Positions 5,112 through 53,565 of a stretch of 64,000 nt of DNA are shown piece by piece. Both the position numbers and the translations under genes were made by a program. The notes under the pieces were generated by a model. The model did not search any database. It was not told the DNA's origin and saw only the letters and a program-made list of their open reading frames with translations. The stretch's first letter is position 1. Every line of letters starts with the position of its first letter. The stretch comes from an uncultured Candidatus Peribacteria bacterium. GTDB taxonomy: Bacteria; Patescibacteriota; Gracilibacteria; Peribacterales; Peribacteraceae. The stretch lies in assembly GCA_964534205.1 (NCBI GenBank), contig CAZHQF010000004.1:109436-173435 (forward strand), given 5' to 3'.

Positions 5112-5179
5112 CTAGAGGAGTTGGAAACCCAGATAAATTTCCGATTACAAAATAACCGACGGTATGCTATAATAATCTG

Positions 5180-28766: not shown

Positions 28767-31700
28767 TCATTCCTGTCCACTTTCGGGCACCGGCTCGCTC
28801 GATGCAGGCGCAGCTTCCGGCTGCGCTGAACCCTCTCCTGCATCGGAGGTTGTCACCGGCTCGGCGGGAGCCTCCGATATCTCCTCGGGTTCTTCTGCGG
28901 GAGTGTCCGTCGTCGCAGTGTCTTCCGTCGGCAATTCCTCAACAGGTGTCTCCGTAGCAGGCTCTTCCGTTGTCACGGGAACCTCATCCGCCGGAGCATC
29001 ATCAGACGGAACGGACAGCCCGTCGGTGATCACAGGAATCTGCACGGTGGCTGCGTAGCCGTCTGGCAAAAGCAGGAGCGGCGGTGTGGTCTGCGTGTTC
29101 CACGTGAAGGTGATCTCAAGATCCGGATGCGTCCACACATAGTCGGTGTGGTAGCGGCTGCACGAGAGCGGATTTCCGTCGGTATCGAGCGTGACGAGAT
29201 TTCTGATACAGGAATTCCAGACGTTATTGCTCGAGAGCGGCACACCGAAGGCATCCACCGGGAAGGCAATCGAGTTTTCCGCATCTGTAACGGCAGATCC
29301 GCTGGCACTCATCTGCGGGTCGTTGGCGAGGATCGCGGTCCAGGCAAAGTCATAATTCTCGGCAGCGGGATTTTTGAGTTCGATCGTGAAGCCCGTGGAC
29401 GTCGCCGGCGTGATCCTCCACGGACCTTCCACGAAGCTCAGCGGCGTGACATTCACGACCGGCGCGAGCGTGAGATCGTGCGTGAAACGCACGGTGACCA
29501 TGGTCTGACCGGTACCGATGCGGGCGAAGCCCGCGTGGCGGTTGCTGACGCGGAGTTCACCGGAAATTTCGACATCACCGAGGAACTGTGCGAGACCATC
29601 GATGGTGATGGGCCCAAGCACGTGGAGCGCGTTTTTGACGACCAGGTTGCCGAAGTCCACGGTGGAACCGGAGGCGAAGTTGAGCAGAGCGCCGGATGCC
29701 AGATCGAGTGAGCCCTGGATCAGGAGCGTGCCGCCGATCGTGGCACCGGAGGAGACGGAGAGGTGATCCGTATCAACGGACGACGCGGTGAGTGCGCCAT
29801 CGATCGTCACGATGCCCGGGATGAAGAGGCTCTGCACCTGCAGCACTCCGTCGAGCGCAAGATCACCGGCGATGCGTGCATCCCCGCCGACCATGAGCGT
29901 GTCCTCCACGTTGAGCGTGGAGGCGGTGAGATCGGAAACGCGTGCCGCAGAACCGGAGAGCGGGTTTTCTACCCGCGGATCGGAAGCAATAATTTGGCTT
30001 CCTGTAGCGGTTTCCTGACTGTCCACAAGAGCCCCCGAGAGCGCGGCTACCTGCTCGCTCAACGTGGTCAGCCTGGAAGACAGGTCTGCAATGTTGAGTG
30101 CGGCGACCTGGCGGTTCACCTCTTCACTGATCGGGAGCATCAGCGTGCCCGAGGCGGAGAAGTTCTCCACGGCCTCCTTGAGCGAGAGTTCAATCTCGTC
30201 CTCGATGCGCAGATCCTTCACCGCCTGCAACACGCGGTCCGTGACGGCTTCCGTGGTGAGCGAACCGTTGCGGCGCGCCACAAGGACACTGATGAGCCCC
30301 GTGGTTCCCTCGGGACCATCGAGGCCTTCAAGAGCCACACCGACCGTCGGCTCCCCTGCCTCGGCACGGCGCGCGTAGCCCGGTGTGAGAGCGGGGGTGA
30401 GCGAATCTCCCGGACGGATCACCGCACCGGATTCCACAATGACTTTGGCCGGGATCTGACCGATGAGACCGACGAGCGTGTATCCCGGCACCGGCAGACC
30501 TTCCTTGAACATCGAGAACCAGCCGCCACCCGTCACGTCGTTACCCACGAAGGACGGGTTGGTGGTGACGATACCCATCACATTCGGGTCGGCCGACCCG
30601 CGGCAGCGCTGGACGGTGCTGCTCTTGGTGGCATCGATACAGACCAATTCGCCGCTCTTGAGGTCGCTGTCCGAGGCTTTGAACCACTCGGCGTAGTCGG
30701 CACCGGGGGCGACATGCGTGGTGTCGGCAGCCGGGTAGAAGTAGAACTTGGTGAGTTCCAGGTGATAGTTTGAGCTGGAGGCGTTCTTGGTGTTCACGAC
30801 ACCCTTGAGGATGTGGTAACCATCACCCGTGATCGTGACGGTATCTGTTTTCACCACGTTGTAGGTGGTGGACGCCGTGTACCAGTCTTGTCCGGTTTCC
30901 ACGAGAACCCCGTCGATGTACCAGTCCACTTTGGCGGAGGCGTTGGTTGTCGCTCCGAGAGCGGCGAACGTGTAGCTACCGGCCCGGAGATAGAAACCGT
31001 TCGTAAACGCATTGCCGTCGGCAGGGGTTGTATGGCGGTTAAAGCTGGCATACTGCTGGCTGCTGTCCGTGCGTGATGTCATTGCCGATCCTGCCACGGA
31101 GATACTTTCCTGATGCCACATCACGGCACGGTCCGGGTACGTGGTGCCCGTTCCGGTGCCCACCTGCACCATCCTCCAGCCTTTCTTGCCCGTACTGTCA
31201 CCGACAAGGTTACCCATATTGACGTAGGCAAAGCCGCGCTTGTTATCGAGGTAGAGCGAGCCCGTGCTGGCCTGCACAAGGTTGTACGGCGTGCCGGAAC
31301 CGGAGTAGATGCCGGCGTTGCGGTTGTACGTGTTGTCGTTCAGACGGATGAACTCGCTGCGGTTCGCGCGGCTGATGACGGCGCCGGAGGAGAGGCGGAG
31401 CACCTGGCCGGACATGGTGCCGACCACCTCGAGCTTCACATTGGAATCGATCGACGTGGCGCCGAGAACGAGGTTATCGCTGGTGTCGTTCAGGAGCACA
31501 AAGGCACCGGCATCGCTGAAGGGCGAAGCTCCCGCCGTGTTATCGATCTGCATCACCGTCATCGTCGGGCGGGCTTCCGTGGTGGTATCCGTGCTGGCAC
31601 CGCCATCGATGTAGACGTACATTTCCAGGTAATCTCCGGCAACAAGATCGAATGTGTCGACCACTGTGGCAGTCACCTGATAGCCGGAACTGCGAGCGAG

Positions 31701-34700
31701 GTCGTAACGTACGAGTGATCCGTTCTTGTAGATGTACGAGACGATGGCTCCGTTGGCAAGGCCTGTGGCATCGGACCACGATGCCGTCACGAGGTACTTG
31801 CCGGACTTCTTGATATCGAAGCGATCGTTGGTACTGTAATCGGCAATGCTGCCGATGTCGTACGCCTCGCCATCGAAGGCAATTTTGGTGACGGTAGCAG
31901 TCGTAATACTCTGTGCTGCAGCCCTGTGCATCCTGGCCATGTGCACTGAGCCTGAGCCCGTTGCAAGAGAGGACCAGACCGTTCCCCCATTTTCATTCTT
32001 CCAGATGGTTCCGGTGTCGGTGGCGAAGTAGAGCGAGGCGCGGTTGCCGGAGACACTACCGTTCGGATTACCAGTGCCGGTTTTGAGCATGACGGAGCCG
32101 CCGTTGGCGCTGTCTTCGAGGAGGAGGTTTCCTGAGGCAGAGACCCCGCGGGAGAGTGTGAGCGCGCCGCTCAAGTTCAGGATTCCGCGGGAGACGCGTG
32201 TGAGCGCCGTATCGTACACGCCACCGGAACCGAACAGGATGTGTGCGGCCCCCTTCGTCGCCAGGCGCAGCGCACCCGTGCCCGTGGTACTCGGTCCGGC
32301 GAGGATGCTGATATCCAGACCGCTCTTCTGCGCCGAGAGATCACGGAGGAAGAACAGTGCACCGGAGCCGGTACCCCCGGAAGCCGGGTTGACGATCTTG
32401 AACGAGTTATCGGAAGACGTGAGCTGGATCATGGCATCGCCGCCGTCAAGGTCGTTGAGATATGCGTCGCGGAGCGTGGTACCAGTGGCGGCACCGCCGA
32501 GGAAGCTCTGGTCGGTTGTCGGCGAGAACCACATCTTTGTCAGCGCGATCGCGTAGCTGCTGGAACTGGCGTGCTTGCCATTCACCGTGCCCTTAAGCAC
32601 GTGGTAACCGCTGGTAGGAATCGTAACCGTCGCTGTCTTCACGGTGTTATAGCCAAGCGAGGTGTACCAGTCCTGACCAGTGACGATTGCGACACCGTCG
32701 ACCGTCCAGTCGATGATACCGTTGTTGGTATTGGTGATACCGAGGACGGAGAATGTGTATGTGCCCGCCTTGAGCATGAATCCTTGCGTGAAGGCATCTC
32801 CGTTGGCGGGTGTCGCCTGCTGGGTAAACGTGTAATAGATCTGGTTCGCATTGGTGAAGTTGGTGAGTGCGGTACCCGCCGTCTTCGTGCTCTCGCTGTG
32901 CCACATCGTGGCGCGGCTCGGGACTACGTTGCCGGACGCGGAACCGCCGCTTCCTTCGGCATCCGTGCCACAAGTGAGCAGACCATTGACGGTTTCAAGG
33001 GCGGTACAGTTGGCGTAGTTGTTGAAGTACGCGTTGCCGTCGACAATGAGGGAACCGGAGGAACGGAGGATGTCCTGGGCGTGGAGGACGCGGCCGGAGG
33101 CGGTGCCGATCACTTCCAGTTTCACGCCGGTATCGATGGTGATGGCGCCGATGGCGAGACCGTCGGAAGTATCATTGAGGTAAGCGAAGGAACCACCATC
33201 AATGAACGGCGACGCACCGGCGCCATCCATCTGTACCACAGAGAGTCGCGGACGAAGATCAGAGCTGGCATCTGTGTTCACCGCATTCGAGCTATAGACG
33301 TACATTTCAATATAATCGCCTACCACAAGATCAAGGACTTCGGTTGCTACTGGCAACGTGGAAGATCCTCCGCCGCCAGCCATCACGCGAGAGCCATTTT
33401 TGTAAATCGACGTCATGGTTGTCGCACCGGGGTTCGGACTGTACCAGTACGCCGTCACGAGATATTTGCCGGCTTTCTTAATATCAATACGGCTGTTGGT
33501 GGTATTTGCCATGCCACCCACATCAATTTCTGTAGTGTTAAGGCTGATTTTTGTATGCGCCGCAGCCCCAATACTTTGGGCAGTGGAACGAGTCATCTTT
33601 GCCATCAGTACTCCCGATCCCGACATGAGTTCCACCCACTGCGTACCGTTGTTGTTGTTCTTCCAGATCTTGCCGGTATCGGTGGCGAAGTAGAGAGAGG
33701 CCCTGCCGCCGCGGATCACCCCGTTCGGGTCGCCGGTGCCGCTGAAGAAGCCGACGGTAGTGTTGTTCGTGGAGTCCTTGAGTGTCAGGAAGCTGGAATT
33801 GGGAGCCTGACGGATCTGCAGCGCACCGCTCAGGGAAAGGACGTTGGAGCCCGTGCGGGACAGGGACACGTTATAGGTGCTTCCCGTGCCGAACAGGATG
33901 TGTGCCGCGCCCTTGGTGGCAAGACGGAGTGCGCCGCTGCTGTTATTGAGGATGCCGGCCCTGATGCTGATATCGAGCCCGCTCTTCTGACTGGAGAGAT
34001 CGCGGATGAAGAACAGCGCACCGGAGCCCGTGCCGTTGCTGGACGGGTTCACGATCTTGAACGAGTTGTCGGAGGACGTGAGCTGGATCATGGCATCGCC
34101 GCCGTCAAGGTCGTTGAGATATGCGTCGCGGAGCGTGGTACCAGTGGCGGCACCGCCGAGGAAGCTTTGATCGGTTGCAGGCGAGAACCACATTTTTGTG
34201 AGAACCATGCAGTACGATGAGGCGCTCGCGTTCTTGCCGTTCACCACACCCTTGAGCACGTGGTAACCGCTGCTGCTGACCGTGACGGAGGCAGTCTTCG
34301 GCGTATTGAAGTTTGCCGCTGCGGCGTACCAGTCCTGCTGCGACACGGCGAGCACTCCGTCGATGTACCAATCGATGATACCGCGATTGGAACTGGGAAT
34401 GCCAAGCACGGAGAAGGTGTACGTTCCCGCCTTGAGGAGGAACCCGTTGGTGAACGAGTCGGAGTTCGTACATGTGCTCTGGAACATAGCCTGTTGATAG
34501 GCTTGCGAACCGACGTTGCTGGAATCCTGACTGAGTGATCCTCCGGTGATAACCTTGCTCTCGTCATGCCACATCGTGGCGCGGCTGGGCACCACGTTGC
34601 CGGAAGCCGAACCGCCGCCGCTTCCTTCGGCGTCCGTGCCACAAGTGAGCAGACCGTTGACGGTTTCAAGGGCGGTACAGTTGGCGTAGTTGTTGAAGTA

Positions 34701-37700
34701 CACAAGACCGTCGGCAATGAGCGAGCCCGAGGAGCGAAGGATGTCCTGGGCGTGGAGGACACGGCCGGAGGCCATGCCGATGATCTCGAGTTTGACGTTG
34801 GTGTCGATGGCGGTGGACCCGAGGTTGAGGGGACCCAGGAAGGAGCTGTTGCCGCTCATGATGGTGAGCGCACCGCCGGAGAGCGTGTTGCGGGCGGAGA
34901 CGTTGGTATTGGCGTACAGGTTGTTGACGGAGATGTTATTGGAGAAGTTGCCGTCGACGCTAAAGATGTTCGACCAGCGGTTGGTGGAGTTGCCGAGTGC
35001 GTAGCTGTTGTTGGCGGCGGCGAGGATGCTGGTATTGGCCGAACCGTTGAAGGAGATGTTGTCACCGGCGGCGTCACCGAGGGAGACGTTGCCGTTGGCA
35101 AAGAGGTTGCCGGAGAAGTTGCCGGTACCGGCATAGAGGCCGTTCCAGCGGTTGGAGGTGTTGCCCAGGTCGTAGGTGACGTTGGCGGCGGGCAGGAGGC
35201 TCGTGTTGAACAGACCGTTGGCGGCAATGTTATCGGAGGTGGCGTCACCGAGACCCACGTTGCCGTTCATGTTCACGTTGCCGGAGAAGTTGCCGGTGTT
35301 GGCGTAGAGGTTGTTCCAGCGGAGAGACGTGTTACCCAGGTCATACGTGGCATTGGAGGCGGGGATGAAGTTGGTGCTCACGTTGCCGTTGAAGTATGCG
35401 CTGCCGTCGACGATGAGGGAGCCGGAGGAACGGAGGATGTCCTGGGCGTGGAGGATGCGGCCGGAGGCGACGCCGAGGACTTCAAAGAGGATGCCGGAAT
35501 CGAGGAAGGCGGTGCCGTTGCCGGAGCGGATGATGAGACCGCCGGTCATGGTGTCACCGGAGACGTTCACGTACCTGCTGTCTGCGGTGGTCTGGGAGAG
35601 GCCGCCGGCCGAGCCGCAGGAGAGGGCACCGGCGGAATCGGTCTGGAGAGCGGAGCAGTTGGTGAGGGACTTGAAGGTGACGCCGCTCTGGACCACGAGG
35701 GTTCCCGAAGAAGCGAGGCGGTCCTGGGCGTGGAGGACACGGCCGGAGGCCATGCCGATGATCTCGAGACGGACGTTACTGTCGATGCTGGTGTTGCCGA
35801 TATTCACGAAGCCGGCAGTGACGTTCTGGGAGAAGTTGCCGTTGACGGAGAAGATGTCTGCCAAACGGTTACTGGTGTTGGCGAGGTTGTATGAGTTGTT
35901 GGCAGCGAGGAGGATGCTCGTGTTCACGAGACCGTTGAAGGAGACGTTGTCGGCTGCTCCGTCACCGAGGGCGACGTTGCCGTTGGCAAAGAGGTTGCCG
36001 GAGAAGTTGCCGGTGTTGGCGTACAGAACATTCCAACGGAGGGAGCTGGCGCCAAGGTCATACGTGACGTTCAAGCTGGGAGTGACGTGGCCGGAGAAGT
36101 TTCCGGAGGCGGCAGTGATGTTGCCCGAGAAGTTACCCACGTTGGCGAAAAGGTTGTTCCAGCGGTTACTGGAGTTGCCAAGGTCGTATGTGGCATTCTG
36201 TGAGGGAACGAAGCTGGTGTTGATGAGGCCGTTGAAGTACGCGTTGCCGTCGACGATGAGGGAACCGGAGGAACGGAGGATGTCCTGGGCGTGGAGGATG
36301 CGACCGGAAGCGGTACCGATGATTTCGAGCTTCGCGTCCCCTGCCAGTGCCGCACCGATGGCCACATTGCCTGTCTGGGCGATGGAGAAGAAATCCTCGG
36401 AACCGATGCCGCCATCGGCGGAGATCACGAGCGTGTCCGAGGCGCTACCGTGGTTCGCGATGGTCCACTTGTTCGTGCCCGCTTCCTTGAGCGTGAATCC
36501 GGCATAGCCGTTTGCGCCAGAATCCAAATAGACAAATGCATTGCTTGTATCGGATTCCACGACTATGTCGGTAGAGGCGGAACCGTTGTACAGATGGAGC
36601 TGGGCGAAGGGATTGGTGGTGCCGATACCCACGTAGTTATCGGCGCTGTCGACGTACAGAGTGGAACCATCGAGGTACGTATCCCCTTCCACAAGGAGGG
36701 TGCCGGAGGAGCGGAGGATGTCCTGGGCGTGGAGGATGCGGCCGGAGGCGGTGCCGATGACTTCAAGCTTTGCATTTGCGACATCGCCGAACAGGTTGTC
36801 TCCCATAGTGATATTGCCGCTGGAGTCCACCTGCATTTTGATCTCACTTCCCCTGTAAAAGTAGATCGGGGCGGCCTCCTGATTGCCAATGGAAAGTGAT
36901 GTGCCATTGACTTCCAGGAACGAACCGTCTGTGGACGCCGTTCCCGTCCAGGCGTTGGTCAAGAGGAGACGCGCGGGAGTGGTGATAGATGAAGAGTGAA
37001 TTTGTACTGGGGCGGCGGGCTCTGCAATACCCACGCCAACACGCTTATTGGAAGCGTCGTACACGAAGCCCGCTGTATCTATAACAAGAATGTTTCCTGT
37101 GGAAGTCCCTGCATATTTCTTGACTACAAGGGCACCGGAGGAAAGGAGAGAGTTTCTGGCAAAGACGGTGGCACCGGAAACGGTGGTGAACTCGAGGAGA
37201 GAACCGGAGATGGTGGTGTTGAGGGCGAGAGCGCCGTTGAGGGTCCTGAGACCCTGGCCGACGGAGATGGAACCCGTGTCATCCGTACCACAGACAATCT
37301 GACCGTTGGAGGTTTCCAGAGCGGTGCAGTTGGCGTAGTTGTTTAGGTACACAGCACCGTCGACGAGGAGGGAGCCACTGGAACGGAGGATGTCCTGCGC
37401 GTGGAGAATGCGACCGGAGGCGGTGCCGATCACCTCAAGTTTGGTGTCCGCACTGAATGCGCCCATGGAGATGTTGCCGTCACCGCCAACACGGAGCATG
37501 GGGCTGGTGCCAGCGCCGTTCATCACAATCAGGCCGTAATCGGAAGCATTGGTTCCTCCGTAGATGCGCACACCGGAACCGAGCGTGGAATAGACATCGA
37601 GACCCAGGTATCCGGCGGTGGTAGTAATGATCTCAAGACCGCTCTTATTGGTGGGAGCGGTGATACTCATGGCAAAATTGCTGTTGGTAGCCCCGATACC

Positions 37701-37763
37701 CACCACGTCATTTGTACTGTCGACGATGAGCGTTGTGCCATCGATGTTCGCGGAACCCTCCAC
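28767..37763 (-). CDS. C-terminal ~3000 aa of a giant surface fibre gene (no signal peptide of its own; continues the 37784..45916 ORF after a frameshift)
   Basis: The ORF-track start is a GTG inside the repeat consensus (..SSGSLIVEGSANIDG). Same module types as the 4503-aa protein, plus tandem jelly-roll-like and C1q/TNF-like domains. The C-terminal ~650 aa are paralogous to the 4503-aa protein. Confidence 0.85.
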   Translation of the reverse strand: MEGSANIDGTTLIVDSTNDVVGIGATNSNFAMSITAPTNKSGLEIITTTAGYLGLDVYSTLGSGVRIYGGTNASDYGLIVMNGAGTSPMLRVGGDGNISMGAFSADTKLEVIGTASGRILHAQDILRSSGSLLVDGAVYLNNYANCTALETSNGQIVCGTDDTGSISVGQGLRTLNGALALNTTISGSLLEFTTVSGATVFARNSLLSSGALVVKKYAGTSTGNILVIDTAGFVYDASNKRVGVGIAEPAAPVQIHSSSITTPARLLLTNAWTGTASTDGSFLEVNGTSLSIGNQEAAPIYFYRGSEIKMQVDSSGNITMGDNLFGDVANAKLEVIGTASGRILHAQDILRSSGTLLVEGDTYLDGSTLYVDSADNYVGIGTTNPFAQLHLYNGSASTDIVVESDTSNAFVYLDSGANGYAGFTLKEAGTNKWTIANHGSASDTLVISADGGIGSEDFFSIAQTGNVAIGAALAGDAKLEIIGTASGRILHAQDILRSSGSLIVDGNAYFNGLINTSFVPSQNATYDLGNSSNRWNNLFANVGNFSGNITAASGNFSGHVTPSLNVTYDLGASSLRWNVLYANTGNFSGNLFANGNVALGDGAADNVSFNGLVNTSILLAANNSYNLANTSNRLADIFSVNGNFSQNVTAGFVNIGNTSIDSNVRLEIIGMASGRVLHAQDRLASSGTLVVQSGVTFKSLTNCSALQTDSAGALSCGSAGGLSQTTADSRYVNVSGDTMTGGLIIRSGNGTAFLDSGILFEVLGVASGRILHAQDILRSSGSLIVDGSAYFNGNVSTNFIPASNATYDLGNTSLRWNNLYANTGNFSGNVNMNGNVGLGDATSDNIAANGLFNTSLLPAANVTYDLGNTSNRWNGLYAGTGNFSGNLFANGNVSLGDAAGDNISFNGSANTSILAAANNSYALGNSTNRWSNIFSVDGNFSNNISVNNLYANTNVSARNTLSGGALTIMSGNSSFLGPLNLGSTAIDTNVKLEIIGMASGRVLHAQDILRSSGSLIADGLVYFNNYANCTALETVNGLLTCGTDAEGSGGGSASGNVVPSRATMWHDESKVITGGSLSQDSSNVGSQAYQQAMFQSTCTNSDSFTNGFLLKAGTYTFSVLGIPSSNRGIIDWYIDGVLAVSQQDWYAAAANFNTPKTASVTVSSSGYHVLKGVVNGKNASASSYCMVLTKMWFSPATDQSFLGGAATGTTLRDAYLNDLDGGDAMIQLTSSDNSFKIVNPSSNGTGSGALFFIRDLSSQKSGLDISIRAGILNNSSGALRLATKGAAHILFGTGSTYNVSLSRTGSNVLSLSGALQIRQAPNSSFLTLKDSTNNTTVGFFSGTGDPNGVIRGGRASLYFATDTGKIWKNNNNGTQWVELMSGSGVLMAKMTRSTAQSIGAAAHTKISLNTTEIDVGGMANTTNSRIDIKKAGKYLVTAYWYSPNPGATTMTSIYKNGSRVMAGGGGSSTLPVATEVLDLVVGDYIEMYVYSSNAVNTDASSDLRPRLSVVQMDGAGASPFIDGGSFAYLNDTSDGLAIGAITIDTGVKLEVIGTASGRVLHAQDILRSSGSLIVDGNAYFNNYANCTALETVNGLLTCGTDAEGSGGSASGNVVPSRATMWHSESTKTAGTALTNFTNANQIYYTFTQQATPANGDAFTQGFMLKAGTYTFSVLGITNTNNGIIDWTVDGVAIVTGQDWYTSLGYNTVKTATVTIPTSGYHVLKGTVNGKHASSSSYAIALTKMWFSPTTDQSFLGGAATGTTLRDAYLNDLDGGDAMIQLTSSDNSFKIVNPASGGTGSGALFFLRDLSAQKSGLDISILAGPSTTGTGALRLATKGAAHILFGSGGVYDTALTRVSRGILNLSGALTLSRGVSASGNLLLEDSANGGSVMLKTGTGNPNGSVSGNRASLYFATDTGTIWKNENGGTVWSSLATGSGSVHMARMHRAAAQSITTATVTKIAFDGEAYDIGSIADYSTNDRFDIKKSGKYLVTASWSDATGLANGAIVSYIYKNGSLVRYDLARSSGYQVTATVVDTFDLVAGDYLEMYVYIDGGASTDTTTEARPTMTVMQIDNTAGASPFSDAGAFVLLNDTSDNLVLGATSIDSNVKLEVVGTMSGQVLRLSSGAVISRANRSEFIRLNDNTYNRNAGIYSGSGTPYNLVQASTGSLYLDNKRGFAYVNMGNLVGDSTGKKGWRMVQVGTGTGTTYPDRAVMWHQESISVAGSAMTSRTDSSQQYASFNRHTTPADGNAFTNGFYLRAGSYTFAALGATTNASAKVDWYIDGVLVETGQDWYTASTTYNVVKTDTVTITGDGYHILKGVVNTKNASSSNYHLELTKFYFYPAADTTHVAPGADYAEWFKASDSDLKSGELVCIDATKSSTVQRCRGSADPNVMGIVTTNPSFVGNDVTGGGWFSMFKEGLPVPGYTLVGLIGQIPAKVIVESGAVIRPGDSLTPALTPGYARRAEAGEPTVGVALEGLDGPEGTTGLISVLVARRNGSLTTEAVTDRVLQAVKDLRIEDEIELSLKEAVENFSASGTLMLPISEEVNRQVAALNIADLSSRLTTLSEQVAALSGALVDSQETATGSQIIASDPRVENPLSGSAARVSDLTASTLNVEDTLMVGGDARIAGDLALDGVLQVQSLFIPGIVTIDGALTASSVDTDHLSVSSGATIGGTLLIQGSLDLASGALLNFASGSTVDFGNLVVKNALHVLGPITIDGLAQFLGDVEISGELRVSNRHAGFARIGTGQTMVTVRFTHDLTLAPVVNVTPLSFVEGPWRITPATSTGFTIELKNPAAENYDFAWTAILANDPQMSASGSAVTDAENSIAFPVDAFGVPLSSNNVWNSCIRNLVTLDTDGNPLSCSRYHTDYVWTHPDLEITFTWNTQTTPPLLLLPDGYAATVQIPVITDGLSVPSDDAPADEVPVTTEEPATETPVEELPTEDTATTDTPAEEPEEISEAPAEPVTTSDAGEGSAQPEAAPASSEPVPESGQE

Positions 37764-37783
37764 GATGAGGGAACCCGAAGATC

Positions 37784-40700
37784 TCAGCTGGTCCTGAGCG
37801 TGGACCGTTGCACCGCTGACAGTCGTGAACTCAAGGAGTGAACCGGTGATGGTGGAGCTGAGACGGAAGCCCGTGCGGTGAGAGTAAGACCCTGACCTGC
37901 GGCATACTGGGTACCTGCGGTGTTGCTGGAACAGACGAGGTTGCCGGAGCTGTCGGTGGTCAGGCGGCCGCAGTTGTTGAAGCCGCCGGAGGTGAGGCGG
38001 AGGCCGGACTGCAGATATGTCTGTCCTTCGACGGAGAGTGAGCCGGATGAGAGCAGCTGGCTGCGGGCGAAGAGCGTGGAGCCCGAGACCGTCGTGAACT
38101 TAAGCAGGGAGCCGCTGATGGTGGAGCTGAGGCGGAAGCCCGTGCCGGTGAGAGTAAGACCCTGGCCGGCGGAGTAGCTCTTGCCGACGCTCGTGGCAGC
38201 GGAGCAGACGAGGTTGCCGGAAGAGTCGGTGGTGAGGACGCCGCAGTTGTTGAAACCCGAAACGATGCGAATACCCGAATTGGCCTGCAGCATGTCGTCG
38301 CCAGCAAAGAAGCCGTCGCCGTAGATGCGCCCGTCGCCATCGACTCCCAGTTCAGTTATGCCGTCGTAGCGAACATCAAGAACATACGTAGCTGGATCAT
38401 CAGCAGCCATATCGAGCACGAGTGCTGTCGTGGCATCCGAATTGTAAATGGTCATCGCAACATCGTTGTCTGAGACAACACTTACCTGACCTTGCAGATA
38501 GGTTTCCCCCTCCACGGACAAGGTTCCACTGGAGGTCAGTCTGCTCTTCGCGGTCACTGTTGAACCGGAAACCGTCTGGAAGCGAACGAGCGAGCCGGTG
38601 ATGGTGGAGTTCAGCTTGAAGCCCGTGCCGGTGAGAGTAAGACCCTGGCCGGCGGAGTAGCTCTTGCCGACGCTCGTGGCAGCGGAGCAGACGAGGTTGC
38701 CGGAAGAGTCGGTGGTGAGGACGCCGCAGTTGTTGAAGCCGCCCGAAGCGAGACGGAGGCCGCCCTGGAGGAAGGTGTTGCCGTCGACGGCGAGGACGCC
38801 GGAGGAGGTCAGACGGTTCGTAGCAGAGACCGTCGCACCGGAGACGGTTGTGAACTCAAGGAGGGAACCCGTGATCGTGGCGTTCAGTCTGAATGACGTA
38901 CCGTTCAAGGTCAGACCCTGAGCGGCGGTATACGTGGTGTTATCGTCGGTGTCACAGACCACGTCTCCATCGGCATCGGTGGAAAGTGCCGTGCAGTTGT
39001 TGAATCCACCGGAGGCGAGCTTGAGGCCGGAAGAGAGAGTCGTGTTGCCGGTGACCGCGACAGTCCCCTGCAGGAAGGAATTGCCTTCCACTGCGAGGAT
39101 GCCGGAGGAGGTCAGACGGTTCGTTGCGGAAACCGTTGCACCGGAGACAGTGGAAAATTCGAGGAGAGAGCCGGTGATGGTGGTGTTCAGCGTGAAGACG
39201 TTGCCCGTGAGTCCAAGACCGCGACCTGCGGCGTACGTGGTGTTGTCATCAGTGCCACAGACCACATCACCATCAGCATCGGTCTCGAGGGTGGAGCAGT
39301 TGTTAAAGCCACCAGAGGAAAGCTTGAGGCCGTTCTGCAGGTAGGTGTTCTGCATGACGGCAAGCGTGCCGGAGACGGAGAGGTTGCCCTTCAGGATAGA
39401 GTTGTTCTCCACGACGAGAGCGCCGGAGGAACGCAGATAGTTGGCAGCGAAGACCTGGGAACCGGAGACGGTCTGGAAACGGACAAGGGAGCCGGTGATC
39501 GTGGCATTGAGACGGAAGCTGGTGCCGTTGAGGGTCAGGCCCTGGGCTGCGGTATAGGTTGTGTTGTCGTCGGTGTCACACGTGATGTTTCCAGAGGAAT
39601 CCGTGGAGAGTGCCGTGCAGGAATTGAATCCGCCGGAAGCGAGACGCAGACCAGACTGCAGAATCGAATTGCCCTCGACGAGGAGCGTGCCGGAGCTGCG
39701 CAACTGATCCTGCGCGTGCACAGTCGCGCCAGAGACCGTGACAAATTCGAGGAGGGAGCCGGTGATCGTCGCGTTGAGACGGAAGCTCGTGCCGTTCAGA
39801 GTCAGGCCCTGTGCAGCGGTGTACGTCGTGTTGTCATCCGTGTCACAGACGATGTCACCGGACGAGTTGGTGGAGAGAGCTGTGCAGGAGTTGAAGCCGC
39901 CGGACGCGAGCCTGAGGCCGCCCTGGAGGAAGGCGTTGCCATCGACGGCGAGAACGCCGGAGGAAGTGAGACGGTTTGCTGCACTGACGAGAGAACCCGA
40001 GACCGTCTGGAAATTCACGACGGAACCGGTGAGGGTTGTGTTGAGAGTGATGACTGTGCCGTTGAGTGTGAGGCCGCGACCGACGGAGTACGTGGTGTTG
40101 TCATCGGTGTCACACGTCACGTTGCCGGAGGAATCCGTGGCAAGAGCGGTGCAACCGTTGAAGCCGCCGGAAGCGAGGCGCAGACCAGAGTTCAGATAGG
40201 CGGTGCCGTCGATGGCCAGAGCGCCGCTGGACTGGAGCGTGTTCTGGGCATGGACGGTAGCGCCGGAGACGAGAGCGAATTCGAGGGTGGAACCGGTGAT
40301 GTTTGCGGAGAGACGGAAGCCGGTGCCCGTGAGGGTGAGGCCCTGCGCAGCGGAGTACTGCGTATTTGTATCTGCATCCGTACCGCACACGAGGTCACCG
40401 TTAGAGTTGGTATCGAGCGTGTTGCAGTTGGTGAGAGCGGTCAGACGTACCGTGCCCTGCAGGAACGCATTGCCGTCGACTGCGAGGACTCCGGAAGACG
40501 TCAGACGATCGGTAGCTGACACTGTTGCACCACTGACCGTAATGAATTCCACAAGCGATCCCGTGATCGTGGCATTCAGCCTGAAGCTCGTACCGTTCAA
40601 GGTCAGACCCTGAGCGGCGGTATACGTGGTGTTATCGTCGGTATCACAGACCACGTCACCATCGGCATCGGTGGAGAGTGCCGTGCAGTTGTTGAAGCCG

Positions 40701-43700
40701 CCGGAGGCAAGCTTGAGGCCGGAAGAGAGAGTCGTGTTGCCGGTGACTGCGACAGTCCCCTGCAGGAACGAGTTCCCTTCAACCGCGAGGACACCAGAGG
40801 AGCTCAGGCGGTTGGCAGCAGCGATCGTGGTACCGGAAACGGTCTGGAACGACACGAGGGAACCGGTGAGAATGCCGTTGAGACGGAAGACGTTGCCATT
40901 GAGCGTGACACCCTGACCGGCGACGTACGTGGTGTCGGAGTCCGAACCGCAAACCAGGTCACCATCAGCATCGGTCTCCAGAGCCGTACAACCGTTAAAG
41001 CCGCCGGAGGCGAGCTTGAGGCCACCCTGAAGGAAAGTATTGCCGTCGACAGCGAGCACTCCGGAGGAAGTCAGACGATTGGTGGCGGAAACCGTTGCGC
41101 CGGAGACAGATGCAAATTCAAGGGTCGAACCTGTGATGTTGAGCGAGAGACTGAAGCCTGTACCCGTGAGGGTGATGCCCTGACCAGCTGCGTACCTTGT
41201 GTTGGTATCGACCACAGCCGTGGAACAGACAAGATCGCCATCGGCGTCCGTCGTAAGCATTCCACAAGCGTTGAATCCGCCGGAGGCGAGCTTGAGGCCA
41301 CCCTGAAGGAAAGTATTGCCGTCGACGGCGAGGACTCCGGAGGAGGTGAGGCGATTTGCAGCGGCCACAGTAGAGCCCGAGACCGTGGTAAAGTTCACGA
41401 GAGAACCCGTGATGGTCGTGTTGAGTGTAATCGTGGTGCCGTTGAGCGTGAGGCCGCGACCGACGTTGTATGTCGTGTCTGCGTCAGTACCGCACGTGAT
41501 GTTTCCGGACGAATCTGTCTCCAGAGACGTGCAGGAGTTAAAGCCGCCAGAAGCGAGGCGCAGGCCCGACTGAAGAATCGAATTACCTTCGACGAGAAGT
41601 GTACCGCTGGAGCGCAGCTGATCCTGTGCGTGGACGGTTGCACCGGAGACGGTGGTGAACTCAAGGAGTGAACCCGTGATCGTGGCGTTCAGTCTGAATG
41701 ACGTACCGTTCAAAGTCAGACCCTGGGCTGCGGTGTATGTGGTGTTATCGTCGGTATCACAGACCACGTCACCATCGGCATCCGTGGAGAGTGCTGTGCA
41801 GTTGTTGAATCCACCGGAGGCGAGCTTGAGGCCGGAAGAGAGAGTCGTGTTGCCGGTGACTGCGACAGTCCCCTGCAGGAACGAGTTCCCTTCAACGGCG
41901 AGAACACCGGAGGAAGTCAGGCGGTTGGCAGCGGCGATTGTGGAGCCGGAGACGGTCTGGAAGTTGAGGAGAGAACCGGTGAGAGTTGTGTTGAGCGTGA
42001 TGACCGTGCCGTTGAGCGTGAGCCCGCGGCCGACGGAATACGTGGTGTTGTCGTCCGTGTCACAGATGACATCACCATCCGCATCCGTTGCGAGCGCTGT
42101 GCAGCCGTTAAAGCCGCCCGAGGCGAGCTTGAGACCGGACTGAAGGACAGAATTGCCTTCCACAAGCAGCGTGCCGCTGGAACGAAGTTCATCCTGTGCA
42201 TGGAACACGCGGCCGGAAGCGGTACCGAGAACTTCGAGCAGCACACCGTTATCCACAACGACCGTGCCGTTGCCGTTACGGATAGCCAACGCGCCGGTCA
42301 TCGTGTCGCCGGAAATATTCACATAGCGGGTATCGGCAGTGCCGATATCGAGGCCGCTTGCGGCTGTCTCATCCACGCCGCAGACAAAGTTGCCGGAAGC
42401 ATCGGTATCGATCGTGTTGCAGTTACGCAGGCTCGAGACGGTGATGGTGGCACCGGAGAGGTTGCCCCGCGTTGTCAGGTTGCCCTTCACGAGACCGGTG
42501 CTCTGGACGACGAGGGTGCCGGAGGAAGCGAGTGACGTTTTGGCGAAGAGTGTGGAACCGGAAATGGTCTCAAATTTGAGGAGCGAGCCCGTGACGGTGG
42601 CATTCAGGCGGAACGTGGTGCCGTTGAGCGAAAGACCCTGACCGGCGGAGTACGTGGTGTTGGTGTCGTCATCCGTACCGCACACCACATCGCCGTCGGC
42701 ATCGGTCTCGAGCGCTGTGCAGCCGTTAAAGCCGCCGCTCGCGAGCTTCAGACCGGAGTTGAGGTACGTGTTGCCATCAACAGCCAGGACTCCGGAGGAG
42801 CTCAAACGGTTCGTGGCAGAGACAGACGCACCGGAGACACTGGCGAACTCAAGTGTGGAACCGGTGATGTTGGTGTTCAGACTGAAACCTGTACCCGTGA
42901 GCGTGAGGCCCTGACCGGCAGCGTATCTCGTGTTTGTGTCGACGACTGCAGAGGAACAGACAAGGTTCCCGGAAGAGTCCGTTGTCAGAGCACCGCAGGA
43001 ATTGAATCCGCCGCTCGCCAATCTCAAACCGGAGTTGAAGTATGCCGTGCCATCGATGGCCAAAGCACCCGAGGACTGCAGAGTATCTTGGGCATGGACG
43101 GTTGCACCGGAAACAGTGGTGAACTCAAGGAGGGAACCGGTGATCGTCGCGTTCAGTCTGAACGACGTGCCGTTCAGGGTCAGGCCTTGTGCTGCGGTGT
43201 ACGTGGTGTTGTCATCGGTGTCGCAGACCACGTCTCCGTCAGAATCAGTGGAGAGAGCCGTGCAGTTGTTGAATCCACCGGAGGCAAGCTTGAGGCCGGA
43301 AGAGAGAGTCGTGTTGCCGGTGACCGCGACAGTTCCCTGCAGGAAGGAGTTCCCTTCAACTGCGAGGACACCAGAGGAGCTCAAACGGTTTGCCGCAGCG
43401 ATCGTGGAACCGGAGATGGTCTGGAAGCTCACGAGCGAACCCGTGAGAATGCCGTTGAGGCGGAAGACATTGCCGTTGAGCGTGACACCCTGGCCTGCGA
43501 CATACGCCGAACCGCCATCCGTGCCGCAGATCAAGTTGCCGTTGCCGTCGGTATCGAGCGTGTCACAGTTTTTGAGAGAGGAGACAGTAAGCGTTGCACC
43601 GGAGAGGTTGCCACGCGTGGTGAGGTTGCCTTTCACGAGGCCGTTGCCCTGAATGACAAGACTTCCAGACGAACGGAGCGAGTTCTGGGCAAACAGTGTC

Positions 43701-45916
43701 GAACCGGAGACTGTCTGGAAACTTGCGAGTGAACCTGTGAGCGTGGTGCTGAGTCTGAACGTCGTGGAGTTGAGCACAATTCCCTGACCGGCCGTATACG
43801 TGGTTCCTTCATCGGTCCCGCACACCAGATCTCCGTTAGAGTTGGTATCGAGCGTGTTGCAATTGGTGAGCGAGGTGATACGGACAGACCCCTGGAGGAA
43901 AGTGGCACCATCAACCGCCAGGACTCCGGAAGAACTGAGACGGTTATTGGCGAAGACCGTGGTTCCGGATACGGAACCGAATTCGAGTGTGGCACCGGTG
44001 ATGTTTGTGTTCAGACTGAAACCCGTGCCCGTGAGGGTGATGCCCTGACCGGCGGCGTAGCGGGTGTTTGTATCAACCGGAGCGGAGGAGCACACCAGGT
44101 CGCCATCGGGGTCGGTAGTCAGCATGCCGCAACCGTTAAAGCCGCCACTCGCGAGCTTCAGGCCGCCCTGCAGGAAGGTGTTGCCTTCCACCGCGAGCGA
44201 GCCGGACGAGCGGAGCACACTGTTCGCAAACAGTGTGGAACCAGAAACCGTCTGGAAGGAGAGGACAGAACCCGTGAGTGTGGAACCCAGGCGGAAGGTG
44301 GTGCCGTTCAGGACGATTCCCTGACCGGCGGTGTACGTGGTGTTGGTATCGGCATCGGTTCCGCAGACCAGGTCTCCGTTGGCGTCGGTATCGAGCGAAT
44401 CACAGTTGGTAAGAGCCGTGAGGCGCACGCCGCTCTGGAAGTACGCGTTCCCCTCTATAGAGAGGATGCCGGAGGAAGTCAGGCGGGTGCCGGCGGTGAC
44501 CGTCCGTCCCGAGAGCGTCTGATACGAGGCGAGCGCACCGGTAATCGTGGAGTTGAGAGAGAAGGTGGAGGTAATGGTGTTGAGCGTCAGACCCTGGCCC
44601 GCCTTATAGGTGGAGCCCACTCCCCCTTCATCCGTGCCGCAGACAAAATTGCCGGAAGCATCGGTATCGATGCTATTGCAGTTCTTGAGTGCGGAAACCG
44701 TGAGCGTTGCGCCGGAGAGGTTGCCGCGTACAACCGCAGAACCGGCCACAAGCAGGTTGCCGCTTGTCGAGAGAAGAGAGGAGGCGTGGATCGTGGAACC
44801 GGAGATCGTGCCGGACACGTTGAGTGCAAGCCCGTCGACGAGGATGTTCAGGAGGCCGGTCATGGTGTCGCCAGTCACGTTCACAAAACGCGCATCGGCC
44901 CCGTTCTGATCGAGGCCGCTCTGCACGAGGGTGGTTTCGGTGGAGCCGCCACCGCCTCCCCCGCCTCCGCGTGACGGACGTTCAGCCACGCCACCGCCGG
45001 ATGGAAGCGGTGCAATACCGCGGCCCGGCTGGTACACACCCGGGAAATCCTTCCATACCGCTTTGCCGTTCTCGATCATGAGAATCTGACCGTTCTTGCC
45101 GCCGTTGGGGAGTTTGAGTGCGGCAATGCGGAGATTGAACTCGTTCTGCGTCTGGGCGGTGGACGTGGCGGACTTGAGCACCGGCCACCCGAACCACGTG
45201 GGCTCGGGGATGAACGGCACGGAAGAAGCGGCCTGCACAAGCCTGCGGGACGAGACGGAGGACGACGAACGGGACGATGCTGCCGACGAACGGGAAGAGG
45301 CGGCAGACGAGACGACGGACGAGCGGGACGAAGACGACGCAGCCACCTGGGCAACAACAATGCGGGAAGACGAACTCTGTGCTGCGGCAACGCGGCCAGC
45401 GGAAGACGAAGACGAGCGGACAGCGACGGTGTTCGTTTGCGTGAACGTGGCAATGAGCGACGACGTGAGGTCCCTGCCGTACGGCAGGAAGAACAGGGCA
45501 ATGAGCACGGCGACACCAGCGAGCACCGGTGTGGTGTGGCGCGGCATCGGAGCGGAGAGCACGGTCGACGCGACCGGGTGCTGCTGCGCATGACGGTAGA
45601 GCGCGATCTGGCGCTCGATGTGCGGGAGCGAGTAGGCAGTGGCCCTGGCGATATACTGGCGTACCGTGCCTTTCTCCTCGCGGGAGAGTGACTCGTAGTG
45701 CAGCTGTGAGAGAACACGGGAAATCCACCGGAGCTTCTCCGCACCCGTCAACGCCGACATGTCCTGCGCCGCCGCCTGGTTGTCCAGGACGGAACGCATG
45801 TGGGCCAGTGTCGGAATGTTGGTGTGCACGTGAGTCTGTGTGTTTGTTGTGTTTCCGCGATTCCGCACCCGCGCGCGAAATCTCATGATTTTAGCGATCT
45901 GCTGCAAAAAGCTCAA
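37784..45916 (-). CDS. N-terminal ~2700 aa of the same giant surface fibre gene (cytoplasmic N-domain, TM anchor, Ser-rich spacer, about 25 repeats of ~90 aa)
   Basis: The track start is TTG at 45916. Alternative ATGs lie at 45886 and 45547 (MPRHTTPVLAGVAVLIALFFLPY). The last ~30 codons (ARASVSAPPSPVHSLSSRLSAVQRSTLRTS) are out-of-frame repeat sequence. Confidence 0.85.
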   Translation of the reverse strand: MSFLQQIAKIMRFRARVRNRGNTTNTQTHVHTNIPTLAHMRSVLDNQAAAQDMSALTGAEKLRWISRVLSQLHYESLSREEKGTVRQYIARATAYSLPHIERQIALYRHAQQHPVASTVLSAPMPRHTTPVLAGVAVLIALFFLPYGRDLTSSLIATFTQTNTVAVRSSSSSAGRVAAAQSSSSRIVVAQVAASSSSRSSVVSSAASSRSSAASSRSSSSVSSRRLVQAASSVPFIPEPTWFGWPVLKSATSTAQTQNEFNLRIAALKLPNGGKNGQILMIENGKAVWKDFPGVYQPGRGIAPLPSGGGVAERPSRGGGGGGGGSTETTLVQSGLDQNGADARFVNVTGDTMTGLLNILVDGLALNVSGTISGSTIHASSLLSTSGNLLVAGSAVVRGNLSGATLTVSALKNCNSIDTDASGNFVCGTDEGGVGSTYKAGQGLTLNTITSTFSLNSTITGALASYQTLSGRTVTAGTRLTSSGILSIEGNAYFQSGVRLTALTNCDSLDTDANGDLVCGTDADTNTTYTAGQGIVLNGTTFRLGSTLTGSVLSFQTVSGSTLFANSVLRSSGSLAVEGNTFLQGGLKLASGGFNGCGMLTTDPDGDLVCSSAPVDTNTRYAAGQGITLTGTGFSLNTNITGATLEFGSVSGTTVFANNRLSSSGVLAVDGATFLQGSVRITSLTNCNTLDTNSNGDLVCGTDEGTTYTAGQGIVLNSTTFRLSTTLTGSLASFQTVSGSTLFAQNSLRSSGSLVIQGNGLVKGNLTTRGNLSGATLTVSSLKNCDTLDTDGNGNLICGTDGGSAYVAGQGVTLNGNVFRLNGILTGSLVSFQTISGSTIAAANRLSSSGVLAVEGNSFLQGTVAVTGNTTLSSGLKLASGGFNNCTALSTDSDGDVVCDTDDNTTYTAAQGLTLNGTSFRLNATITGSLLEFTTVSGATVHAQDTLQSSGALAIDGTAYFNSGLRLASGGFNSCGALTTDSSGNLVCSSAVVDTNTRYAAGQGLTLTGTGFSLNTNITGSTLEFASVSGASVSATNRLSSSGVLAVDGNTYLNSGLKLASGGFNGCTALETDADGDVVCGTDDDTNTTYSAGQGLSLNGTTFRLNATVTGSLLKFETISGSTLFAKTSLASSGTLVVQSTGLVKGNLTTRGNLSGATITVSSLRNCNTIDTDASGNFVCGVDETAASGLDIGTADTRYVNISGDTMTGALAIRNGNGTVVVDNGVLLEVLGTASGRVFHAQDELRSSGTLLVEGNSVLQSGLKLASGGFNGCTALATDADGDVICDTDDNTTYSVGRGLTLNGTVITLNTTLTGSLLNFQTVSGSTIAAANRLTSSGVLAVEGNSFLQGTVAVTGNTTLSSGLKLASGGFNNCTALSTDADGDVVCDTDDNTTYTAAQGLTLNGTSFRLNATITGSLLEFTTVSGATVHAQDQLRSSGTLLVEGNSILQSGLRLASGGFNSCTSLETDSSGNITCGTDADTTYNVGRGLTLNGTTITLNTTITGSLVNFTTVSGSTVAAANRLTSSGVLAVDGNTFLQGGLKLASGGFNACGMLTTDADGDLVCSTAVVDTNTRYAAGQGITLTGTGFSLSLNITGSTLEFASVSGATVSATNRLTSSGVLAVDGNTFLQGGLKLASGGFNGCTALETDADGDLVCGSDSDTTYVAGQGVTLNGNVFRLNGILTGSLVSFQTVSGTTIAAANRLSSSGVLAVEGNSFLQGTVAVTGNTTLSSGLKLASGGFNNCTALSTDADGDVVCDTDDNTTYTAAQGLTLNGTSFRLNATITGSLVEFITVSGATVSATDRLTSSGVLAVDGNAFLQGTVRLTALTNCNTLDTNSNGDLVCGTDADTNTQYSAAQGLTLTGTGFRLSANITGSTLEFALVSGATVHAQNTLQSSGALAIDGTAYLNSGLRLASGGFNGCTALATDSSGNVTCDTDDNTTYSVGRGLTLNGTVITLNTTLTGSVVNFQTVSGSLVSAANRLTSSGVLAVDGNAFLQGGLRLASGGFNSCTALSTNSSGDIVCDTDDNTTYTAAQGLTLNGTSFRLNATITGSLLEFVTVSGATVHAQDQLRSSGTLLVEGNSILQSGLRLASGGFNSCTALSTDSSGNITCDTDDNTTYTAAQGLTLNGTSFRLNATITGSLVRFQTVSGSQVFAANYLRSSGALVVENNSILKGNLSVSGTLAVMQNTYLQNGLKLSSGGFNNCSTLETDADGDVVCGTDDNTTYAAGRGLGLTGNVFTLNTTITGSLLEFSTVSGATVSATNRLTSSGILAVEGNSFLQGTVAVTGNTTLSSGLKLASGGFNNCTALSTDADGDVVCDTDDNTTYTAAQGLTLNGTSFRLNATITGSLLEFTTVSGATVSATNRLTSSGVLAVDGNTFLQGGLRLASGGFNNCGVLTTDSSGNLVCSAATSVGKSYSAGQGLTLTGTGFKLNSTITGSLVRFQTVSGSTVTAKSRLTSSGTLSVEGETYLQGQVSVVSDNDVAMTIYNSDATTALVLDMAADDPATYVLDVRYDGITELGVDGDGRIYGDGFFAGDDMLQANSGIRIVSGFNNCGVLTTDSSGNLVCSAATSVGKSYSAGQGLTLTGTGFRLSSTISGSLLKFTTVSGSTLFARSQLLSSGSLSVEGQTYLQSGLRLTSGGFNNCGRLTTDSSGNLVCSSNTAGTQYAAGQGLTLTARASVSAPPSPVHSLSSRLSAVQRSTLRTS
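37871..37878 (-). other. Frameshift site: 1-nt deletion joining or splitting the 2710-aa and 2998-aa ORFs
   Basis: cgtgcggtgag here versus cgtgccggtgag in sister repeats (for example 38141-38152 and 38621-38632). Restoring the missing C gives ...AGQGLTLTGTGFRLSSTITGSLLEFTTVSGATVHAQDQLRSSGSLIVEGSANIDG, which is continuous with the downstream ORF. Confidence 0.8.
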
Positions 45917-48697: not shown

Positions 48698-48762
48698 GAG
48701 CGCTCCTCTTTAGGGAAGGGTGGGCCCGTGGGAGGGACACCGTAGGTGGCCCTTCCGCGAAT
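48698..48762 (-). repeat. Conserved element immediately after the rpiB stop; second copy at 62792-62855 after the rpsI stop
   Basis: Shared 37-nt core CCGTGGGAGGGACACCG(T/G)AGGTGGCCCTTCCGCGAAT (48726-48762 and 62819-62855), plus weaker upstream similarity (GAGCGC...GGAAGGG). Confidence 0.75.
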
Positions 48763-49232
48763 TACTCGAGATCTTTGATCCTCCGCTCATGCCTGCCACC
48801 CTCAAACGGCGTCTCTAAAAAGATATCGACGATCTTCAGCGCGAGCTCGGGTTTTGTGAGACGTCCGCCCATACTCAGCACGTTCGCATCGTTATGACTG
48901 CGCGCGAGCTTCGCCGTCTCCTCGCTGTAGCAGAGCGCCGCGCGGATGCCGCGGACCTTGTTGGCAGCCATCGCCTCGCCGTTGCCGCTGCCACCGAAGA
49001 TGATGGCCGGTGCCCCGATCTCGAGTGCACGTGCGCACGCCTTGCGGATGATGCCCGGATAATCCACCGGCTCCTCGGAGAACGTGCCTTCATCGAGGAC
49101 ATCGATTTTTTTGGAGAGCAGATGCTTTTTCACGATCTCCTTTAACGCGTATCCGGCGTGATCGGTACCAAGGACGATGCGGGCGGGGGTGGACATACGT
49201 AAAGCGTAGCAGGAAACAGTGATAGATGACAT
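48762..49232 (-). CDS. rpiB: Ribose-5-phosphate isomerase B (RpiB/LacAB family)
   Basis: IVLGTDHAGYALKE and GGSGNGEAMAANKVRGIRAAL motifs. The likely real start is the ATG at 49196 (MSTPARIVLG). Confidence 0.9.
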   Translation of the reverse strand: MSSITVSCYALRMSTPARIVLGTDHAGYALKEIVKKHLLSKKIDVLDEGTFSEEPVDYPGIIRKACARALEIGAPAIIFGGSGNGEAMAANKVRGIRAALCYSEETAKLARSHNDANVLSMGGRLTKPELALKIVDIFLETPFEGGRHERRIKDLE

Positions 49233-49327
49233 TTTGGCTTACAGAAGGGCTCATCAAAGGTTTCCCGGCTGTTTCTTAGGCGACAGATACCTCCGGTTTT
49301 ATACTGGCCGCGTTCCCCCCTAATATT

Positions 49328-49981: not shown

Positions 49982-50077
49982 GGAGAAAACAGGGTATGCT
50001 CACCGCGTGACCCCCCGCCCCTTCATTGCCCCTCGACGGGCTCGGGGCCTTTACCCGCTTTCCGTGTTTAGAGCTCT

Positions 50078-50785: not shown

Positions 50786-50895
50786 GGCCTGCCCTGAGCG
50801 ACCTCTTAGCTACCACAAGCCTTGATTGTGCATAAACGGGGAAATATTTGTGTCGAAGGGCTGGAAAAAAGAAGTGAAGGGTGTAGCGTGAAGGC

Positions 50896-51660: not shown

Positions 51661-51852
51661 TTTTTGGCCTAGGAAAGCCAATAATTCTTCCTCTTTTTTG
51701 TCATATTTGCATAAACGAAGAAAGAATGTACGCTCTTACTTGTCTGTTCGTTTCCGAAGGGGGGCGAACAGCAGAAGAGGCGGCCATGAGGCCACCCCGC
51801 AAATCCTCACTGGTCCTTCGGATCAGTGAGTTTTTTTGTATACTGAGGAGCT

Positions 51853-52215: not shown

Positions 52216-52249
52216 GTTTCGTCATTCTTCATCCGCCATTCGCGATTAT

Positions 52250-53353: not shown

Positions 53354-53565
53354 ACGAGAGAACGCTATCTCTGAAGACTGCGACCGGGGAGGCCCTTGCA
53401 AACATTTTCTCGGGACTTTCTGTTTTTTTGGCTTCAGGAAGGGCTCCTGGCGTTCTGTGGGGTGGCAGAACGCCTTGGCCTTCCTTGCCAAAACCCCTTG
53501 TCCCAAGCGCCCGTTTGCCGCATGCTCTTCCGGCTCTTGTTCTTTTCGACTCTCAGGAAAAAAAT

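Follow-up and report, generated by a model that had tools for sequence, protein, structure and literature searches.

Long genes interrupted by a single-base insertion or deletion (indel) are familiar both as young pseudogenes and as indel errors in metagenome-assembled genomes, and they leave the same picture in either case: two adjacent open reading frames (ORFs) on one strand but in different frames, the second of them startless, which a single inserted base restores to one ORF. An arrangement of this kind is found in the 64,000-nucleotide (nt) stretch of contig CAZHQF010000004.1 (assembly GCA_964534205.1) that was analysed here and is called the window below. Two giant ORFs on its minus strand, ORF1 and ORF2, are very probably the two halves of one gene, whose product would be a giant surface protein of phage-tail-fibre-like build, anchored in the membrane by a single pass, from a Peregrinibacteria- or Peribacteria-type bacterium of the Candidate Phyla Radiation (CPR). 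Nothing essential separates the locus from other frameshift-interrupted genes, although the gene, at about 17 kb, is unusually long compared with typical cases and no further decay is seen in the 9 kb downstream of the frameshift. The frameshift is of the ordinary kind and teaches nothing new about recoding.

Homologues of the giant ORFs are named Candidatus Peregrinibacteria or Peribacteria. In Candidatus Peribacter riflensis, with a G+C content of 58.5%, strain variation is found chiefly in very large cysteine-rich extracellular proteins (PMC4736985); the variation consists of small indels, and a role in attachment has been proposed for these proteins (Anantharaman et al. 2016, PMC4736985). 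By homologue names the window belongs to the same phylum-level group, its G+C content is similar (about 0.6), and very large Cys-containing surface proteins occur in both. The proteins described here are larger, 4,503 and about 5,700 amino acids (aa) against at most 3,861 aa, and the published indels are in frame and tens of bp long, whereas the present one is a 1-nt frameshift (PMC4736985). Overlapping frames that need a -1 shift are also a feature of programmed frameshift sites such as those of dnaX, the IS3-family transposases and the phage tail assembly chaperone G/GT; in contrast to these, the present locus lacks a slippery heptamer and a stimulatory structure, and the shift is not conserved in relatives. 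A further possible likeness is to phage tail fibres, tailspikes and neck appendages with a C-terminal auto-chaperone (gp12 of phi29 and GA-1, PF11962; the endosialidase-type chaperone, PF13884), since a putative G2-like domain opens the C-terminal module here. Unlike the phage fibres, the protein is cellular, membrane-anchored and 5 to 7 times longer. In addition, about 500 conserved residues follow the G2-like domain, which is not so in the gp12-type proteins, and trimerisation and autocleavage may be attributed to it only by analogy.

The frameshift site and the case for a single gene

ORF1, ORF2 and the intact paralogue ORF3 are arranged head to tail on the minus strand, with ORF1 and ORF2 in different frames and 20 nt between the ORF1 stop and the ORF2 GTG. 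Coordinates are collected in Table 1. Of the two possible ORF1 starts the ATG is the likely one, because N-terminal homology to family members starts at residue 29 as numbered from the TTG.

Table 1. Features of the split gene and its paralogue, in window positions.
Feature	Position	Strand	Description and basis
ORF1, upstream frame	37784..45916; 37784..45886	minus	2,710 aa from TTG 45916 (longest ORF); 2,700 aa from ATG 45886 (likely start)
ORF2, downstream frame	28767..37763	minus	2,998 aa, nominal GTG start 37763; ORF call
ORF3, intact paralogue	15063..28574	minus	4,503 aa; ORF call
Transmembrane-like segment, only one of the split gene	45467..45541	minus	ORF1 residues 116-140, RHTTPVLAGVAVLIALFFLPYGRDL; Kyte-Doolittle
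Shaft	37764..44700	minus	about 24 copies of an 87-107-aa repeat; motif positions and spacings, repeat families, alignment
Frameshift site	37876..37877		single C at + 37876 (coding-strand G) against one more base in 7/7 sister repeats
Out-of-frame ORF1 tail	37784..37876	minus	30 codons (ARASVS...LRTS), then TGA stop 37784-37786
Remainder of repeat 24	37764..37874	minus	TGFRLSSTITGSLLEFTTVSGATVHAQDQLRSSGSLI; ORF2 frame, upstream of nominal GTG
Conserved C-terminal module	28767..30749	minus	660 aa, begins GADYAEWF; putative Peptidase_G2 / phi29 gp12-like domain, then helices, then beta domains

At the frameshift site the coding strand reads ACC GCA CGG, where the intact sequence would read ACC GGC ACG. 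The string CGTGCGGTGAG occurs once in the window, at 37872..37882, whereas four copies of the one-base-longer CGTGCCGGTGAG are present where 0.03 would be expected. When the DNA was aligned with seven sister repeats, the junction copy had CTCACC-GCACGG at the position where all seven carried CTCACCGGCACGG or an equivalent; this one-base gap was the sole gap of the junction copy in the aligned stretch, and its flanks were gapless. Insertion of one base at the site gives a single ORF of 5,716 codons (about 5,706 when counted from the ATG) with no internal stop. The preliminary description of this DNA had proposed that one missing C splits a gene of about 5,700 aa and that the sister repeats carry the extra base, and both the alignment and the repaired ORF agree with it.

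The deletion sits in the 24th copy of the shaft repeat, which places the ORF1/ORF2 boundary inside a repeat unit. Behind it, ORF1 ends in 30 residues, ARASVSAPPSPVHSLSSRLSAVQRSTLRTS, which resemble no repeat; their local alignment score of 26 is under the shuffle mean of 35. The same DNA in the -1 frame reads TGFRLSSTITGSLLEFTTVSGATVHAQDQLRSSGSLIVEG, or in a wider reading ...TGFRLSSTITGSLLEFTTVSGATVHAQDQLRSSGSLIVEGSANIDG..., and continues into ORF2. This peptide is identical to another ORF1 repeat at 35 of 40 positions, with a local score of 175 where the best of 200 shuffles reached 55. The ORF2 frame is open from 38099 and so overlaps the ORF1 frame by 316 nt (38099..37787). Codon-usage log-odds trained on ORF3 follow the same course: the ORF1 frame is strongly positive down to about 37920 and negative across the out-of-frame tail, while the ORF2 frame is positive from about 37890 onward, with the switch falling between window starts 37920 and 37890. 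The coding signal thus changes frame at about 37880, some 90 nt ahead of the ORF1 stop and 113 nt ahead of the GTG at which ORF2 nominally starts. The GTG itself encodes the V of the repeat motif LIVEG.

On the Kyte-Doolittle scale with a 19-residue window, ORF1 has a sole hydrophobic segment (maximum 1.96, Table 1), and no segment of at least 1.6 was found anywhere in the 2,998 aa of ORF2. No promoter-like or terminator-like site was found in 37000..38600, that is, around the boundary of the two ORFs. The statements of the preliminary description that the last 30 codons of ORF1 are not repeat-like, that the -1 frame is repeat-like and leads into ORF2, and that ORF2 has no start context, signal or anchor of its own all held up in these analyses. 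The readings also differ in the predicted tryptic peptide at the junction, which would be ...TQYAAGQGLTLTGTGFR (...GLTLTGTGFR) in an intact or recoded product and ...TQYAAGQGLTLTAR in a truncated one.

The relatives point the same way. The repaired protein (residues 1457-4322) aligns with ORF3 (214-3277) in one BLASTP alignment at 42% identity, which spans the junction, and several shorter homologues align without a break over the junction position. Both an ORF1-type N-terminal module (residues 1 to about 280) and an ORF2-type C-terminal module are present in 11 of the 148 best representatives; such two-module single polypeptides include P0068 (4,069 aa), P0069 (5,006 aa) and P0078 (3,159 aa). 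To judge from these sequences, one polypeptide is the norm of the family.

Two further candidates were rejected. Reinitiation at the GTG at 37763 does not account for a coding signal that begins 113 nt upstream, and its product would have no export signal. Read-through of TGA under an alternative genetic code stays in the frame that is not coding-like and meets another stop.

Origin of the missing base and its consequences

If ORF1 and ORF2 are one gene, the C is missing either from the cells or from the consensus only. Taking all readings jointly, we regard a real, young allele as about an even prospect and an artefact of assembly or sequencing as a serious possibility that falls short of even, and leave a minor share to everything else. 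In the artefact reading, itself a sub-case of the one-gene reading, the gene is intact in the organism. The 2,998 downstream codons look as if this were so, and since these 9 kb are still fully open and coding-like, the deletion is either very young or not in the cells. The deleted base also lies within a 2-base homopolymer. Single-base indels are the dominant error of long reads, but a 2-base run is not a typical hotspot of such errors. The preliminary description had thought of a consensus error in a repetitive region, and of this proposal the part that concerns repetition is weakened, while a random or long-read indel keeps its place. The region 37701 to 38060 shares exact matches of at most 23 nt with the rest of the window, and the extra base is present in all seven aligned sister copies. 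Collapse of repeats is an unlikely cause of the gap, since the site is unique locally and any reads mapped wrongly from the sisters would add a base, not remove one. Nor is the assembly generally indel-ridden, since no other split gene is visible in the about 34 ORFs of the window, and no other frameshift was seen in about 55 kb of coding sequence, the 13.5-kb ORF3 included. To the same effect, the Logan assembly of SRR12404957 holds the same population, with an independent 4,876-bp contig that is 100% identical to window 48727..53602 (0 mismatches, 0 gaps). Several points limit the case for one gene broken by a deletion in the organism. The contig resolves an exact repeat of about 906 bp between ORF2 and ORF3, which short reads alone rarely manage; this suggests long reads, with indels as their main error type. 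In the genome and metagenome collections searched, neither an orthologous locus nor an independent contig over the site was found. The exact DNA pattern allowing both alleles had no match in Joint Genome Institute (JGI) metagenome contigs, protein-guided scans of genome and metagenome contigs with the repaired junction peptide gave pattern matches of which none was a relative, and in a word-index homology search the best match to the junction region was 37% identical, so that no orthologue emerged. Fragments from the predicted k=31 unitig 37302..38164 were found in the collection for neither allele, but four control fragments were likewise missing, so that this search was uninformative. The deposited gene calls, moreover, list two proteins. 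The exact 2,700-aa product of ORF1, out-of-frame tail included, is present in the public protein collection on a 205,908-bp NCBI contig, and the exact 2,998-aa product of ORF2 is a separate entry from the same contig. These calls only mirror the frameshift and therefore simply follow the sequence as written; for annotation, the two deposited "proteins" are to be taken as one gene for about 5,700 aa, interrupted or mis-assembled. Finally, a Shine-Dalgarno-like motif is missing upstream of ORF2, which is weak evidence for a startless frame when taken alone, because confident genes of the window lack one too: no such motif was found upstream of the genes for triose-phosphate isomerase (TIM), Rpe, RpiB and DprA, of ORF3, or of the other genes checked in the window. 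The source organism may depend little on Shine-Dalgarno-led initiation.

The deposited calls and the 20 nt between stop and GTG would also suit a genuine two-gene arrangement, in which an anchored shaft protein and a head protein are made separately. This we find barely credible, as the supposed start lies within a repeat motif and the boundary within a repeat unit, the coding signal of the second frame begins well upstream of that start, ORF2 has no anchor, signal or promoter, and the family keeps both parts in one polypeptide. A full-length protein might instead be produced from the sequence as written, by a programmed -1 ribosomal frameshift or by transcriptional slippage in the 316-nt overlap. 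The shift required is indeed -1, and such a mechanism would explain the intact downstream frame. It is nevertheless very improbable: the overlap has neither a heptamer of the form X_XXY_YYZ in the ORF1 frame nor a homopolymer of at least 4, and the register is restored only by a shift exactly between ACC and GCA, which is a non-slippery site. The 141 nt from the site onward do not fold significantly (minimum free energy -45.4 kcal/mol against -40.6 +/- 3.6 kcal/mol for shuffled sequences, z = -1.35, with 20 of 200 shuffles as good), and the paralogue and the 20 full-length relatives examined are single ORFs that need no shift. Because slippery heptamer, homopolymer of at least 4 and significant RNA structure are all missing, there is no support for programmed frameshifting, transcriptional slippage or simple-sequence phase variation. 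The preliminary description had ranked an error or a mutation above a programmed or variable shift and had judged the CC too short for classic slippage, and we arrive at the same ranking for the same reason. A population-variable switch, by which coexisting alleles toggle the distal half of the fibre on and off in the manner of phase variation, could be imagined because strain-level indels in Candidatus Peribacter concentrate in giant surface proteins (PMC4736985) and a redundant paralogue adjoins. We consider it improbable, although less so than programmed recoding; there is only CC at the site, and without a simple-sequence tract there is no mechanism for high-frequency reversible switching. 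A slightly larger, still low probability is given to a deletion that is real and polymorphic in the population, so that cells differ in the distal head and the truncated shaft serves as a functional short form or an escape variant. Were this so, the variation could mean escape from pressure exerted by the host or by phages that share fibre modules, and an episymbiotic CPR bacterium would then have a system of surface variation based on a frameshift that involves no simple-sequence tract.

The reading of one gene interrupted by a young deletion has the following consequences. As written, the sequence has lost 1 nt (CC to C at + 37876) in shaft repeat 24 of what was very probably a single ancestral gene. 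This loss shifts the frame, and translation would stop 30 codons further on, to give a 2,700-aa anchored shaft that lacks both the head and the conserved C-terminal module. No protein should be made or exported from the 2,998 codons downstream, because ORF2 has no start, anchor or promoter of its own. That the truncated product keeps anchor and shaft and loses head and tail was expected from the preliminary description, and that part stands; we refine it in that the conserved C-terminal module is lost as well. Since hundreds of homologues keep this module at their extreme C-terminus, the deletion, if real, is probably inactivating and not just shortening. It would then most likely be a loss-of-function allele, tolerated because an intact paralogue adjoins, and one example of the loss or truncation of one of two tandem paralogues. 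Such a loss would fit earlier reports in which differences among strains of the group lie in giant surface proteins.

Architecture, paralogue and the conserved C-terminal module

Split or not, the gene is one of a large, uncharacterised family in Peregrinibacteria whose products are giant and membrane-anchored, with phage-tail-fibre-like modules and a conserved terminal module. ORF1 begins with a cytoplasmic domain and one membrane anchor, followed by a Ser-rich linker, a "GQILMIENGKAVWKDFPGVY" module and the shaft repeats. These repeats are marked by a C-x12-C loop (e.g., CTALSTDADGDVVC), the motif GQGLTLNGT.F.LN.TITGSLLEF.TVSG and an ending ..SSG.L.VEG. ORF2 contains the last shaft units, the "head" modules and the conserved C-terminal module, and its head is composed of KLEVIGTASGR.LHAQD units, TYDLGN..RWN repeats of tail-fibre type and three CBM35-like modules. 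Pfam and PHROGs searches with the whole giant ORFs gave almost no matches. The N-terminal cytoplasmic domain (window 45540-45886, ORF1 residues about 30-115) had no Pfam match either. It carries the motif LSREEKG.VRQYI....YS...IERQI, which is kept in distant family members, where P0065, P0068, P0069 and P0078 have the version DKGLVREYL..TGYSRAQIARYI. A conserved cytoplasmic domain is odd for a surface fibre.

ORF3 holds the same order of parts in one frame: a short cytoplasmic N-terminus and an anchor (transmembrane-like segment at residues 16-40, Kyte-Doolittle), an IPEPTWFG ... GQILMIENGKAVWKDFPGVY module, shaft repeats, head modules, which additionally include LVIVD repeats, and the C-terminal module. 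The C-termini of ORF2 and ORF3 are 57% identical. A stretch of 1,050 bp is 98.7% identical between the two genes (window 20586-21635 in ORF3 and 34719-35768 in ORF2) and includes an exact repeat of about 906-942 bp, whereas elsewhere they are only about 40% identical at the protein level. On this sequence pattern the stretch looks like the product of recent gene conversion between tandem paralogues.

The C-terminal module is widespread. An exhaustive profile-free search with the 660 C-terminal residues of ORF2 gave 2,413 cluster representatives at E<=1e-3, of which 300 matched at E<=1e-30, and in nearly all full-length proteins listed (800-5,357 aa) the ORF2-type module was C-terminal. Of 48 homologues of the module, 16 have a precomputed annotation as Peptidase_G2 (PF11962). 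The ORF3 C-terminus reached 23.6 bits against PF11962, which is below the cut-off of 25 (E=4e-5), and ORF2 had no Pfam match, PF11962 included. A PDB sequence search with the C-terminus gave no match. The AlphaFold model of the module has a mean predicted local distance difference test (pLDDT) score of 66, with values above 90 only for residues about 16-160 and 400-570. In Foldseek the model matched pre-mature phi29 gp12 (3SUC) at E=2.9e-4, yet with a template modelling (TM) score of 0.14-0.16 and a root-mean-square deviation of 8.9 over 196 columns, and phage capsid decoration proteins matched it as well as 3SUC does. In phages, domains at the C-terminus act as intramolecular chaperones, which fold the trimeric fibre upstream of them and afterwards self-cleave (PMC8326128). 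By analogy with these, a product that ends at the frameshift would miss an element needed to fold. The distal beta domains (model residues about 400-570) gave weak Foldseek matches to H-type lectins, i.e., Helix pomatia agglutinin and discoidin II (E about 0.007-0.06), and also to the C-terminal domains of tailspikes; the model hints at a carbohydrate-binding tip.

Proteins of 700-1,000 aa share the shaft and head repeats at 31-43% identity. Those in L002, P0008, P0017, P0023, P0026 and P0029-P0031 are located on contigs of strikingly uniform length, 46-49 kb. In the one such contig examined (L002 10001-12523, GCA_040384165.1, JAWVHB010001576.1, 46,723 bp), neighbouring genes code for large Peptidase_M23 proteins and for a collagen-like protein, and the locus looks like a phage tail module. 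By its sequence, the giant cellular protein appears to have modules in common with phage tail fibres.

Other features of the window

The neighbours of the giant ORFs in the window are ordinary housekeeping genes, coding for triose-phosphate isomerase, RpiB, ribulose-phosphate epimerase, DprA and glycosyltransferases. The locus has genes for RpiB, Rpe and a DUF192 protein on its upstream side and for PMT_2 and GT2 proteins on its downstream side. Positions 4001-8000 form an island of low G+C content, 0.37-0.42 against about 0.6 elsewhere, with genes for a half-length EamA transporter (148 aa, one domain), a SET-domain protein and a histidine kinase, and this island may be foreign DNA. Two further large ORFs are found on the minus strand, at 7361-11737 (1,458 aa, with FG-GAP repeats) and at 53645-58189 (1,514 aa, with no family match), and with them the window is unusually rich in very large putative surface proteins.

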